Shown: piece by piece, positions 47,391 to 54,376 of the stretch | How positions within the stretch are numbered: the first letter of the stretch is position 1 | Layout of the letters: every line of letters begins with the position of its first letter | Sequence record: OR896837.1 | Strand: one strand, 5' to 3' | Source of the DNA: Escherichia phage vB_Eco_mar004NP2 | DNA length: 64,000 bases | The notes under the pieces: generated by a model | Databases searched by the model: none | Told to the model about the DNA's origin: nothing | The model's input: the letters and a program-made list of their open reading frames with translations, nothing else | Made by a program: the position numbers and the translations under genes

Positions 47391-47842
47391 TATAAGAACC
47401 TTGCGAATCCTGATTTTGTTTCAGTCTTGACTTGTGTCTTTTCTTGAGGATTCTGTAATTTGTCTTTCTGCTTTTGAACCCACGCTTTTTGCTTATTAGC
47501 AGAAAATAAAGGAGGTTCTTTTGTGTAAACCTTATGTAATAATTGGTGATGGTGCTGGCACAATGTTACCACGTCCCTAACTAACTCATGCTCATATTTC
47601 TTGTAGAATGCTTCCCTATTTGAAAGGACGATATTCTCATCAGTGAAATCCAGCTGGAGTTCTTTAGCAAATTTTTTTATTAGCTGAGATATAGTATGAT
47701 AATGGTGAAGTTCTAGGTCTTCACTACTACCACATATAGCACAGCAACCATCCTTACTATACCTAGATTTTATACCATCCCTCATTATGGAAATGGCATC
47801 ACGTTTGTACTTAGTATTAGTGGCCATAATCCTCCAATCCAA
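47390..47842 (-). CDS. HNH endonuclease
   Basis: CAICGSSEDLELHHYH...LCQHHHQLLH is an HNH signature. Confidence 0.65.
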   Translation of the reverse strand: MDWRIMATNTKYKRDAISIMRDGIKSRYSKDGCCAICGSSEDLELHHYHTISQLIKKFAKELQLDFTDENIVLSNREAFYKKYEHELVRDVVTLCQHHHQLLHKVYTKEPPLFSANKQKAWVQKQKDKLQNPQEKTQVKTETKSGFARFL

Positions 47843-48491
47843 AGCTACTTAGAAAGATTACTATATCCTCAGGAGCAACATTAAAAAATTCCGTGCTTCC
47901 TGTAAAATTAGAAAACCCACAGTTTTTATTATAATATTCTCTGTGAACTTCCTTTTCTAAATCTAAAGCAGTCTCTCTATCTGGCAGATGATACATGGTG
48001 AACAAGTATAGGTCAGAAAATCCAGATTCTCTTTTAACTTCATTCAGCCGTTTCTCAGGGTATAAGCTTATGCCTACTTTAGTACCACTAGAGGAGGACA
48101 TGATATAGAGGAATCCGCCATTCTCCCACTTAAGAGAACAATAAGGACATCTCTTACCTTGAGTCAATCCATCTAAGGTAATTAAACAGTCATGCCCATT
48201 ATTGCAGCGTAGATGTAGTTTTGTTTTAGCATTAGTATAGCTGCTTAACAGAGTATACCCTATATTAGATATTCTGTTATTAACTTCATCTAACGATATT
48301 GTATTATTGGAGCAGTGTGGACAACCTCTCCCCATATGGAGTATAGAATGTGGTGTTGCTTCCCAAACATGTGCTCTCTGGCATTTAAATACTGTTTTTG
48401 TACGTTGGTTTACATACTCACCGACAATTTGGATTCCACGATCAGCTAATCTAATATTTATATCTTTTATTGTTAGCTTTTGTCGACCCAT
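47817..48491 (-). CDS. putative GIY-YIG-superfamily (T5orf172-like) endonuclease with two CPxC zinc ribbons
   Basis: CPHCS and CPYCS motifs; C-terminal GFLYIMSSSSGTKVGIS...R...E resembles a GIY-(x10)-YIG-like core. Confidence 0.4.
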   Translation of the reverse strand: MGRQKLTIKDINIRLADRGIQIVGEYVNQRTKTVFKCQRAHVWEATPHSILHMGRGCPHCSNNTISLDEVNNRISNIGYTLLSSYTNAKTKLHLRCNNGHDCLITLDGLTQGKRCPYCSLKWENGGFLYIMSSSSGTKVGISLYPEKRLNEVKRESGFSDLYLFTMYHLPDRETALDLEKEVHREYYNKNCGFSNFTGSTEFFNVAPEDIVIFLSSFGLEDYGH

Positions 48492-50471: not shown

Positions 50472-52229
50472 TTAGGTAAGGCGTTGAACTGTTACTCTTA
50501 ATCTCGGTAGGAAAACTGCACTACCTAAACTTACGTGCATAACTACCCCTAACTCTACATTTCCATTCCCCAGATTTTTAGCAGTATATATAAAACTATT
50601 TCTACTTAGGGCATTGTTAGGTGTGTACCTAAAAGCAGATGTAGTATGAAAAGGTACTAAATACCCTACTGGTAATGTTAAAATCTGGTGGAATATTGCA
50701 TCTCCATTACTATAGCTATATGCTCTTCTTCCTTGCACTTGAAACACACCGTTATTCCATGTATTAGCAGGAACACCTGCACAGTTAAGGTTACCTGATA
50801 TAACTTCAGTGGTAAGAATTACTGTAGCATTGCCACCCGGTATACCTAGCCCAATAGTTGATAAACCAACGTATCTATCCCCTGTTCCCGGGTAGCTGGG
50901 AGTAATATCATCCCCCATGTAAGAGCTACCTACATTTCCACCAAAAAGTCGTAATGGAACTGCTGATGGTCCCCAAACAACCCCGTGTTCATTACCGATA
51001 GTATTATCCCTAGAGTTTACATACCATTGCTTACCCGCTCCGAATTTGTAAATGCTAATTTGGGATTTAGCTCCACCATAGTCTACAGGAGACCATAATC
51101 CTCCATTACTAGACCCTACAAGTTCACACCTTGCCGTGGTATCCCCAAAAACCCCGGTATACGCTGCGTTATTTCCTATATACTCCATATCAGGACGGTA
51201 ACCTAGGTTACCAAAAGCATTCTGATTTATAAATTTATACCCGGTATTAGGGAGACTTACCCCTTTAATTATGAAATTAGAAGGAGATATAAGAATATCA
51301 GAACCAGTAAAGGGGTTGCCTGAAATACTCATTCCACCATTAGAGTACCTTAAATTAAGAACATACCAAATAACCTTAGTAGGGGTTATATTATACCAAT
51401 CCTGTAGTATTGTAGAGTCACCCGACTGGTTAGCTAAATTAGTAGTAGATCCCCTACAAACAAATCTGTTCCCACCGTCGTGGTACATAGTATTTACATT
51501 ACCTGGGAGCCCTTGTCTAACCCCACCGTATCCACGTATATTAGAGTTGCAAACATAAAACCAATCATGCCCTCTATGTGCTGCTCCTAGAGGCGACATC
51601 CATCCAGGATCCCAATAGTACGGGTTATTCCCATCTACAGGTACTGTGCTACTATTAGTAGGAAAACCTAATTGTGCAAAGGCTTCTGCAACAGTAACAC
51701 CTACAGGAGCTCCCGCACCAGGCCTAACTATCCCATGGTAGGTACTATGTAACGTAGTACCACCTGTACCACTCCTAGAGATAGATTCTTCGTGCCATAT
51801 CGATGGGTTATAATTATAAGTTCCAGATGCTAGACTATTACCAAATGCAAATCCACTGGTTTGAGAAACACTAGCAAAAGATCTAAAGGGGTCTGCTTGA
51901 GTGGCAACTATAGTTTGACCAACTTTACTCTGAGTACCATTAAGAAAAGCTCTGTGAGTACCATTAATCTCAATAGCAGTTAGTATAACTCTACCAGGAT
52001 CATTAGATTTAATATTTACTATATCAGGAGGCATCTGACATACGAAAAACCCATTCCCGGCATCACCTAATCCTGCCTCATAAGTACCCTCAACTAGAAC
52101 AAATGGCATATCACTATGAAAAATACTATTATTACTTGGACTATAGTGACGATTAATGTCACCCCCAGATTCAGTATTTAAAGATAGTACGGTCTTACCA
52201 TCGCTATACTTTCCAGCGAAAAAACCCAT
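50472..52229 (-). CDS. receptor-binding tail protein (pb5/Oad-like)
   Basis: 585-aa Gly/Asn/Thr-rich beta protein, divergent from the lipoprotein gene as in T5 oad-llp. Confidence 0.5.
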
Positions 52230-52254
52230 ATAATCTCCTATTATAAAAATGTAT

Positions 52255-52283
52255 TTGCTTTCATCCCTCTATTTTGCTATAAT
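52255..52283 (+). promoter_or_regulatory. sigma70-like promoter for the lipoprotein gene
   Basis: TTGCTT-17 nt-TATAAT followed by AAATTCATAAATTAGAAATGGAGAG. Confidence 0.55.
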
Positions 52284-52314
52284 AAATTCATAAATTAGAA
52301 ATGGAGAGATAAAT

Positions 52315-52581
52315 ATGAAAAAGTTTGTAATTGCACTAGTTGCCACAGTTATATTATCTGGTTGTGTACCTGCTCCCAAACCATTTTGTACGGGATTTGT
52401 AAAATCTTTTGGTGGTGCGGGAGAAGAATATTACGGTCTCAAGGTTCAAAAAGTTCGTATTAAGGGAGATCGCTTTCCAGTAGTACAGCTCCGTACTAAA
52501 TTTGGGTGGTGGGATCTCAGTCAGTTTGACCTTAAATATGGTGATTGTAAATTTAAACTAGAGCAATCTAATTACCTGTAA
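52315..52581 (+). CDS. llp: lytic-conversion lipoprotein (Llp-like), predicted receptor blocker
   Basis: Signal peptide with lipobox: MKKFVIALVATVILSGC; 88 aa; divergent from the receptor-binding protein gene. Confidence 0.6.
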   Translation: MKKFVIALVATVILSGCVPAPKPFCTGFVKSFGGAGEEYYGLKVQKVRIKGDRFPVVQLRTKFGWWDLSQFDLKYGDCKFKLEQSNYL

Positions 52582-52748
52582 TTAGTATAAAACAAAAAGA
52601 CATCCAAGTAAACTAAATTTTTTATTTCTTGGATGGTATATTGGCAGAAACCACTATGTAAGAAAAGTAGAAGTCCTTCTAGGAGTCCACAAGCACGGTT
52701 GGTTATGCACATATTTTAAAATATCACATTTATGGGAGCACGAAAGAT

Positions 52749-52984: not shown

Positions 52985-53175
52985 TGGAAGTGGCAGCTAC
53001 ATTAATAGTAATATTAATCTGGGCAATTTTCATTGTTTCTTATACCGCGTATGTTCGCCTAAAAACTCTAGAGGCCCAGGTAAAGCAGCAACAATTTGCA
53101 CTAGAAAAATTAGTAGAGCTTCAACGCTGTGATAGTACCCGTATTCTGCAAATTGAGAGGGAATTAGATGTTTAG
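52981..53175 (+). CDS. small membrane protein (64 aa)
   Basis: N-terminal TM helix (AATLIVILIWAIFIVSY) then coiled-coil-like tail; ATGA overlap with the previous ORF. Confidence 0.4.
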   Translation: MMEVAATLIVILIWAIFIVSYTAYVRLKTLEAQVKQQQFALEKLVELQRCDSTRILQIERELDV

Positions 53176-53413
53176 TATTGTAATTGCTTTTATTATCGGG
53201 ATACTCGCGGGAGTTTTCGGGACGACTGCGGCAATCAATAAGCATCGTAAATATATTGCGGGAGTGACGCGGGAGATTGCGGAAAGGGAGCGGAAGTTTG
53301 ACGAGAAACGTGCGGAGTTTGAGCGGGAGTGGTCGGATGGATCTCGGGCGTCGCGGAAGAGATTCCGTGAGTTCAGACCAGAATACAGGTTTGATGACCC
53401 TTCTATGCGCTAA
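53168..53413 (+). CDS. small membrane protein (81 aa)
   Basis: N-terminal TM helix (IVIAFIIGILAGVFG), highly charged C-terminus; 3' end lies in the 76-bp tandem repeat. Confidence 0.4.
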   Translation: MFSIVIAFIIGILAGVFGTTAAINKHRKYIAGVTREIAERERKFDEKRAEFEREWSDGSRASRKRFREFRPEYRFDDPSMR

Positions 53414-53519
53414 TTTGACTTTTGCCAATTTCTTTGGATTACGTGAGTTCAGACCAGAATACAGGTTTGATGACCCTTCTATGCGCTAATTTGACTTTTG
53501 CCAATTTCTTTGGATTACG
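53368..53519. repeat. 76-bp tandem direct duplication (2 copies)
   Basis: GTGAGTTCAGACCAGAATACAGGTTTGATGACCCTTCTATGCGCTAATTTGACTTTTGCCAATTTCTTTGGATTAC occurs at 53368-53443 and again at 53444-53519. Confidence 0.9.
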
Positions 53520-53641
53520 TACGCGTGGGTGTGTCCAGTGGCCCCCCAGATGAGAATGAGTCTCATTACCGCCCGGTACTTAGCAGGCTAATAGTCACGG
53601 CATGGTATCATTACACACCGTGACTATTTCAACTTTAATTG

Positions 53642-54376
53642 TTAGGCAACTTTTAATTTCTCAATATATTGTTGAGGACTGCAACTATATTCTGCGCGTT
53701 CTTCCTCGGTCATACCTTCCCAGCATAATTTTAAACGGTCAGCTAGGAATTGATAATCATTATCATCGTCGAGAGATTCATCAATAAAGGTTTCACCTAT
53801 CAATGCCACGCCGATTGATAGAATATCATTAACGGCTTGTGCGTCCAGCGTTTTAAATCCGTATGACGCTGCCGCTGATAGCACGCCTTTATGATCATCA
53901 ATCATTGTAAAATCAGCGTTAGGATATAACTGTTTAAATAATTCAAAATAATAAGATTTATATACTGCGTCTTTGCTGTGGTATATTTCGCTAACCTTAT
54001 CAGCTTTAAAATATTTGTGTAGTGTATCGCGGGAAAATACGCGGATATTACTATTACCACGACCGCGCAACCCTTGTTTACGCAAGAAATAATAGTCCGA
54101 CTTACTCATCAGTCGAGCGGTGCAAATAATGTTTAAAGTATTTGCGTCATTCATGCACTGGCGCATATATTCAACCAATGGCAATAAAGTATCTTGCATT
54201 ATTAAATGGTGTTTACACGCTTCATTTTTATACTTATTTAAATCTAAATTGCCCTCGCTATCAAAGCAGGGTGCTATACGATGGAAAGAATTAATGATAG
54301 TGCCGTCTAAATCCCAAATCATGACGCGGGAAATATGCGGGAAGCTGCGGGAAAGATTCATGATAGCTTTATTCAT
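53642..54376 (-). CDS. dmp: HAD-family 5'-deoxyribonucleotidase (Dmp-like pre-early protein)
   Basis: HAD motif I IWDLDGTII; 244 aa; next to the A1-like gene. Confidence 0.65.
   Translation of the reverse strand: MNKAIMNLSRSFPHISRVMIWDLDGTIINSFHRIAPCFDSEGNLDLNKYKNEACKHHLIMQDTLLPLVEYMRQCMNDANTLNIICTARLMSKSDYYFLRKQGLRGRGNSNIRVFSRDTLHKYFKADKVSEIYHSKDAVYKSYYFELFKQLYPNADFTMIDDHKGVLSAAASYGFKTLDAQAVNDILSIGVALIGETFIDESLDDDNDYQFLADRLKLCWEGMTEEERAEYSCSPQQYIEKLKVA

Follow-up and report, generated by a model that had tools for sequence, protein, structure and literature searches.

Among the described systems closest to the locus discussed here is the oad-llp pair of phage T5, in which oad encodes the receptor-binding protein pb5 and the receptor is FhuA rather than BtuB, and for which structures of FhuA with pb5 (8A8C, 8B14) and of FhuA with the lipoprotein Llp (8A60) are available, T5 Llp being represented by 7QJF as well. 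The loops of pb5 that insert into FhuA were described by van den Berg (2022), and so was the allosteric action of Llp from the periplasmic side, a mechanism that has been demonstrated structurally for T5 Llp and FhuA alone (van den Berg, 2022). A second type of cassette, hrs-llp, is described for phage BF23 by Mondigler (2006) and Golomidova (2016; PMC4728585), BF23 being the classical BtuB-dependent phage (PMC4728585). The closest classically characterised relative of the present locus is the rbp-llp pair of DT57C and DT571/2, for which both BtuB dependence and exclusion have been shown: btuB mutants are resistant to DT57C, and plasmid-borne DT57C llp cut the plating of the DT57C-series phages and of BF23 more than 100-fold (PMC4728585). 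A need for BtuB was likewise established for Bas30 by btuB deletion and complementation (PMC8594841), and for the Yersinia phage phiR2-01 by transposon mutants, complementation and transfer of sensitivity (PMC8624392). The literature calls the BF23-type and T5-type Llp non-homologous (PMC4728585).

In this article, I discuss a gene pair in a 64,000-nucleotide stretch of Escherichia phage vB_Eco_mar004NP2 (OR896837.1), the whole of which is called the window below. With high confidence, the pair is a cassette of the BF23 type that serves host recognition and lytic conversion in a T5-like phage (Tequintavirus). The gene structure, the protein family and fold, the close identity to proteins that have been tested and the limits of the cassette are the evidence that comes from this analysis, and BtuB dependence and the blocking phenotype are attributed to the pair from the literature on close relatives. 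The cassette is the common Bas32/T5_ev219 subtype of the described BF23-type hrs-llp, a variant named and tested before in close relatives, and the window phage is one more member of that subtype.

Layout, control region and boundaries of the cassette

The hrs/oad-type gene for the receptor-binding protein (RBP) is an ATG-initiated frame of 585 aa on the minus strand (50472-52229), and llp is an ATG-initiated frame of 88 aa on the plus strand (52315-52581, starting MKKFVIALVATVILSGC), both taken from the list of open reading frames (ORFs); the two diverge from a control spacer that reads as 85 bp in the sequence (52230-52314). The RBP gene lies directly upstream of terS and terL, as in every T5-like record, with the divergent llp adjoining it, and the pair as a whole is flanked by the small terminase subunit on one side and by a series of tiny membrane-protein ORFs on the other. 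A reading made earlier from the sequence alone had likened this arrangement to T5 oad-llp, and the T5 record does have the same divergent layout. BF23 (DQ097178) has the same gene order and orientation, promoter and ribosome-binding site, an Llp that is also 88 aa long, and the same site between terS and small membrane-protein ORFs; the receptor argued for below, BtuB, would be shared as well.

A 2.5-kb region of the locus is 99.9% identical to Salmonella phage SPLA5b and to PMBT29 and 92-98% identical to many further Tequintavirus isolates, and in a DNA search one match spanned at least 80% of this region in 116 phage records. Homologues in the same arrangement were found in 281 phage records by DNA, in 540 by RBP protein and in 399 by Llp protein, and because hundreds of homologues keep the same layout, the two ORFs are not chance ones. 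Dozens of records annotate the RBP gene as 'receptor binding tail protein', and llp appears in related records as 'receptor-blocking protein' or 'Cor superinfection exclusion protein'.

Compared with T5 (NC_005859) by blastn, the locus has the form of a swapped cassette of about 2.2 kb (50489-52711). The window is 95% identical to T5 in nucleotides up to position 50488, a stretch that takes in terS and the last RBP codons, and 89% identical again from 52712, and between these points the sole part that aligns to T5 is a 70% island at 52209-52325, which spans the promoters, the beginning of llp and the N-terminal part of the RBP. These boundaries reproduce the 'region lacking homology' given for BF23 by Mondigler et al. 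(2006).

The spacer holds a candidate llp promoter on the plus strand (52255-52283), made up of a -35 element TTGCTT (52255-52260), a 17-nt spacer and a -10 element TATAAT (52278-52283) with a TG at 52275-52276, and a Shine-Dalgarno sequence GGAGAG (52303-52308, plus strand) follows 6 nt ahead of the llp ATG. The promoter elements match by offset the llp -35 and -10 annotated in the BF23 record DQ097178; in alignment they are kept in BF23, DT57C and Bas32 and recognisably in T5, and the 85-bp spacer itself is nearly identical in the first three and recognisably conserved in T5, where the corresponding spacer bears annotated promoters on each strand. The llp promoter was missed by the generic scan, which demands 4 of 6 matches in the -35 hexamer and would find 3 of 6 here. 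That llp probably has a sigma70-type promoter of its own, which the sequence-only reading had also proposed and which the element TTGCTT-17-TGcTATAAT bears out, is argued from the perfect extended -10, the conservation and the BF23 annotation, and not from a statistical scan. No terminator was found after llp, either as a match in the terminator scan or in RNA folding of 52575-52725 (z -0.53 against shuffled sequences).

The receptor-binding protein and its receptor

The 585-aa protein is a pb5-fold, receptor-binding tail-tip protein of the pb5/Hrs family. Its residues 1-585 align to positions 1-650 of the phrog_4815 'receptor binding tail protein' profile with an E-value of 9.1e-272, and PF26860 is present in the precomputed annotations of all 29 database homologues; the local Pfam and NCBIfam searches gave no family match, the PF26860 model being presumably absent from the local Pfam. 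Among sequences of solved structures T5 pb5 (8b14_B/8a8c_B) was the sole match (E 4e-50), and an AlphaFold2 (AF2) model built with 28 homologues (pLDDT 86, pTM 0.88) retrieved the same chains in Foldseek, 8b14_B with an E-value of 6.8e-32 and TM-scores of 0.67/0.71 and 8a8c_B with 1.7e-28, the next match standing at 2e-3 and none else falling below 1e-3. The receptor-binding type assigned to the protein from its letters is therefore upheld by family, sequence and fold alike. Several proteins in the mar004NP2 record are marked as structural proteins confirmed by mass spectrometry, and the RBP is without that mark; for T5 pb5 the literature does place the protein in the virion.

By identity the RBP is closest to those of Bas32 IrisVonRoten (97.8%), T5_ev219 (97.6%) and Cit2 (97.3%), and it is homologous over its full length to the RBP of DT57C (586 aa, 73.5%) and to BF23 Hrs (595 aa, 66.4%); against T5 pb5 (640 aa) the identity falls to about 28-29.7%. 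Such an alignment to T5, BF23 and relatives had been proposed along with the sequence-only reading, which had also put pb5 at about 640 aa and noted that the RBP is the shorter of the two. Both points hold, and the difference in length arises because 74 residues of pb5, located in loops and 21 of them around the loop L4, are missing from the RBP while 19 RBP residues are absent from pb5. Bas32, T5_ev219, Cit2, chee24 and others share the same RBP subtype (585 aa, 97-98% identity, with Llp at 95-97%), and these isolates differ from the window by just a few substitutions. DT57C, in contrast, differs in its RBP by about 26%, mainly in variable loop regions, and the 595-aa BF23 Hrs differs in mosaic divergent patches at about residues 91-270 and 450-570.

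Which receptor goes with this subtype was approached with a neighbour-joining tree and an identity matrix that covered each of the three known receptor types (BtuB; FhuA, T5; FepA, S124/H8), the EPS7 RBP being left out of the identity figures as CP000917 has its gene either broken or without annotation. The window RBP and that of Bas32 are sister to DT57C within the group of BF23, Bas30/EPS7 and phiR2-01, and FhuA-type T5 and FepA-type S124 (24% identity) both stand well apart. An assignment to the FepA type was rejected on this 24% identity and on the 'Llp-like' protein of S124, which is unrelated. The tested members of the clade, down to 55% RBP identity, all use BtuB. Closest to the window, BtuB is listed for Bas32 in BASEL Table S5, and in the retrieved rows of a supplement of randomly barcoded transposon screens (RB-TnSeq; bioRxiv 10.64898/2026.04.02.716166) btuB is listed among the scored genes for Bas32 in replicate screens, with values of 13.7-14.8. 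That preprint assigns BtuB to Bas32 and EV219, with 'BtuB / None' as the table entry for Bas32, and describes 23 BtuB-binding Demerecviridae phages whose RBP is about 30% identical to pb5, a figure with which the 29.7% found here agrees. The receptor of the window phage is thus probably BtuB, judging from relatives that are 97-98% identical in the RBP.

One published assignment points elsewhere. For the Citrobacter phage Cit2, whose RBP is 97.3% identical to that of the window, an RBP identity of 96.9% to 'T5' was reported and FhuA inferred as the receptor (PMC12980165), and if the window RBP bound FhuA as T5 does, it would be paired with a mismatched BtuB-type Llp, recognition and exclusion being 'decoupled' as was proposed for Cit2, whose Llp matches that of BF23 at 100% identity. 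When compared with genuine T5 pb5 (M62847, NC_005859), however, the Cit2 RBP is 29.9% and the window RBP 29.7% identical, whereas the Cit2 RBP is 97.3% identical to that of 'T5_ev219', which is another phage; the figures given in PMC12980165 for BF23 (66.7%) and DT57C (73.2%) do agree with the comparisons made here, and Bas32 and EV219, which have the same RBP subtype, were assigned BtuB by the RB-TnSeq screens. As far as the sequences go, the FhuA inference for the Cit2 RBP conflicts with them, and I consider FhuA extremely unlikely as the receptor of the window phage. The 96.9% figure may plausibly stem from a mislabelled 'T5' reference, though this is a guess.

The variable parts of the RBP deserve a closer look, as they bear on where the protein would touch its receptor. 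Compared with BF23 Hrs, identity is 33-52% in residues 91-120, 151-210 and 241-270 and 51-63% in residues 451-570, and it reaches 80-97% in residues 271-420; within the BtuB clade, judged on 22 cluster representatives, conservation is lowest at 106-124, 158-207, 239-257, 487-498 and 533-543. Mapped from pb5 onto the RBP, an operation that is approximate at 28% identity, Gln115 falls at 114, Phe170 at 172 and L4 (570-590) at 529-539, and the variable RBP stretches fall where the FhuA-inserting pb5 loops align. This coincidence is in keeping with the RBP contacting its receptor by the same end as pb5.

The same loops could be taken to mean that this RBP subtype has drifted to another or an additional receptor, or to another epitope of BtuB, while keeping an inherited BtuB-type Llp. 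Drift of this kind would explain tip loops so unlike those of BF23 and DT57C (33-52% identity to BF23 Hrs there); a point of recombination separating hrs from llp has been proposed (Golomidova, 2016; PMC4728585), and Llp is 95-100% conserved among phages whose RBPs are 66-73% alike. Bas32, however, was assigned BtuB with no second receptor in the preprint, btuB being among the scored genes in the rows retrieved, and every tested clade member down to 55% identity uses BtuB, so that I regard such drift as very unlikely and BtuB as the probable receptor still. A different epitope on BtuB is possible and would leave the classification unchanged. It should be borne in mind that receptor use and exclusion are carried over here from relatives whose RBP is 97.8% and whose Llp is 96.6% identical, and that the RBP is just 66-73% like those of the classical BtuB binders BF23 and DT57C, the differences clustering in the presumed receptor-contact loops.

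The lipoprotein and its relation to T5 Llp

The divergent frame at 52315-52581 encodes a lipoprotein with the lipobox LSGC, as had been read from its letters: a signal peptide of residues 1-16 leads into L14-S15-G16-C17 (52354-52365, plus strand), the mature protein is 72 aa from Cys17, and the match to Pfam LPAM_1 scores 22.3 bits against a cut-off of 20. Position +2 is Val18 and not Asp, which by the Lol-avoidance rule predicts sorting to the outer membrane. Apart from the lipobox, the Pfam and NCBIfam searches gave no family match, and phrog_1119 was matched at 7e-24. In the AF2 model (pLDDT 84) the protein is a small beta-barrel, for which Foldseek against the PDB returned no significant match.

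To its relatives the protein is very close: identity to BF23 Llp is 95.5%, and for the Llp of DT57C, of Bas32 and of T5_ev219 the figure is 96.6%. From DT57C Llp it differs at three positions, one in the signal peptide (I13M) and two in the mature part (V18A, Y39H), and from BF23 Llp at T11A, I13M, V18A and Y39H; the forward cloning primer BF23Llp42-F (PMC4728585) matches the window exactly at 52303-52343. A word-indexed search found 10 Llp clusters at 60-95% identity, all of 88-89 aa, and a profile searched exhaustively against 1.84 billion representatives returned as its sole true cluster the BF23-type Llp's own (50%). The sole other profile match is a protein of 541 aa (P0044), whose 8 repeats align to profile positions 11-35, mostly the signal-peptide and lipobox end and not the mature domain. 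In all 11 Llp cluster representatives C17, C25 and C78 are invariant, and by analogy with T5 Llp C25 and C78 may form an intramolecular disulfide.

These comparisons support the protein as a BF23-type receptor-blocking (superinfection-exclusion) lipoprotein and a putative BtuB blocker. One could instead suppose that the 88-aa lipoprotein has no receptor-blocking role at all and serves, for example, in lysis in the manner of an o-spanin or is a generic moron lipoprotein, and its small size, the lack of a curated Pfam or NCBIfam family past the lipobox and of a strong structural match would fit that; I consider such a role extremely unlikely. An allosteric action of Llp from the periplasmic side, as with T5 Llp and FhuA, would find some support in the conservation of Llp, 95-100% across phages whose RBPs share just 66-73%, since this is expected if the blocker recognises BtuB and not the contact surface of the RBP. 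The different receptor with a co-evolved blocker that the sequence-only reading had suggested finds its likely form in an RBP placed within the BtuB clade and an Llp 95.5% identical to the BtuB-blocking Llp of BF23.

Whether this lipoprotein is also kin to T5 Llp is a separate matter. The phrog_1119 profile is matched over its full length by the window Llp (7e-24), BF23 Llp (2e-26) and T5 Llp (1e-19), which is weak evidence for homology as the family may simply hold both Llp types, and T5 Llp was not among the PDB sequences that phmmer retrieved with the window Llp. Profiles of the BF23-type and T5-type Llp matched at full length with 93% probability (E 3.5e-7), a match that is due to the signal peptides: after removal of signal peptides and lipobox Cys, hhalign gave an E-value of 0.24 and a probability of 0.25%, similarity of the mature parts was undetectable, and the full-length match was rejected as evidence of homology. 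Both types do have in common the lipid-bearing Cys, a second Cys 8-10 residues on and a Cys near the C-terminus. Common ancestry of the two is plausible, and it is well supported that the window Llp works like T5 Llp; by sequence comparison, its membership in a T5 Llp/Cor family is not established. That the BF23-type and T5-type proteins form one ancient family of beta-barrel lipoproteins, lockers acting from the periplasmic side and retargeted among TonB-dependent transporters, is a tentative idea to which I would give slightly less than an even chance.

Proposed mechanism and its implications

Taken together with the literature, the cassette would work as follows. The RBP, carried at the tip of the straight central fibre, would bind the vitamin B12 transporter BtuB irreversibly, and this binding would trigger ejection of the DNA. 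Early in infection llp would be transcribed from its own promoter by the host RNA polymerase, and its product would be exported, acquire its lipid at Cys17 and reach the outer membrane, where it would bind BtuB and lock it in a form that the RBP cannot use, probably by allosteric blocking from the periplasmic face if T5 Llp and FhuA (van den Berg, 2022) are a guide. Locking BtuB in this way would prevent superinfection and spare progeny from being lost on the debris of lysed cells.

For annotation, these comparisons suggest that the window phage should be given BtuB, in place of FhuA, as terminal receptor, along with a matching superinfection-exclusion lipoprotein, and they contradict the FhuA assignment published for the near-identical RBP of Cit2 (PMC12980165). 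For the design of phage cocktails, BtuB-type and FhuA-type T5-like phages should not exclude one another, and host mutations to resistance should fall in different genes. Furthermore, if the BtuB-type Llp shares the fold of T5 Llp, the structural mechanism worked out for FhuA and Llp could extend to BtuB.

The terminal-repeat region and the neighborhood of terL

Within the window, the 3' end of an 81-aa ORF (53168-53413) is repeated by a 76-bp tandem duplication (53361-53520) of 2.1 copies with 98% identity, and it is at the place matching this duplication that the records of T5 and BF23 have the right terminal repeat begin. Directly after the small ORFs on the llp side comes dmp, the gene for the dNMP phosphatase (53642-54376, minus strand), with the junction at approximately 53440. 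In T5 dmp lies inside the terminal repeat, since the right-hand copy begins in the T5 record a short way upstream of the matching sequence; the window sequence therefore appears to be an assembly in which the terminal repeat is present once. Between the portal-side genes and terL, a homing-endonuclease-like ORF of 224 aa is intact (47817-48491, minus strand), whereas in NC_048205, the closest RefSeq record (mar004NP2), a 1-bp deletion cuts its counterpart into two annotated CDS; the window sequence is therefore not exactly that of NC_048205.

Proteins annotated as Llp-like or matching the Llp profile

The FepA-type cassette of Salmonella phage S124 (locus L006) includes a gene annotated as 'T5 Llp-like receptor blocking protein' (2067-2378), the product of which is 103 aa as annotated and belongs to phrog_16810, a PHROG different from that of the window Llp. 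The annotated S124 protein lacks a lipoprotein-type N-terminus, and sequence comparison of the 103-aa protein with the window Llp revealed no similarity. Apart from members of its own family, the BF23-type Llp profile matched only P0044, a metagenomic protein of 541 aa (E 5e-8), in which eight separate stretches match profile positions 11-35, corresponding to the signal-peptide, lipobox and N-terminal part.

Receptor-binding proteins of EPS7 and Cit2

For the BtuB reference phage EPS7 (L009, approximately 590-2400), record CP000917 leaves the receptor-binding protein gene unannotated and no ORF at this locus exceeds 296 aa, which suggests a frameshift or sequencing error in the gene. For Citrobacter phage Cit2 (L010, OP745948, 473-2582), FhuA had been inferred as the receptor because the receptor-binding protein was described as 96.9% identical to 'T5' (PMC12980165). 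The sequences are at odds with this published inference: the Cit2 protein shares 29.9% identity with T5 pb5, against 97.3% with both T5_ev219 and the window receptor-binding protein. The Llp proteins of Cit2 and BF23 are identical.
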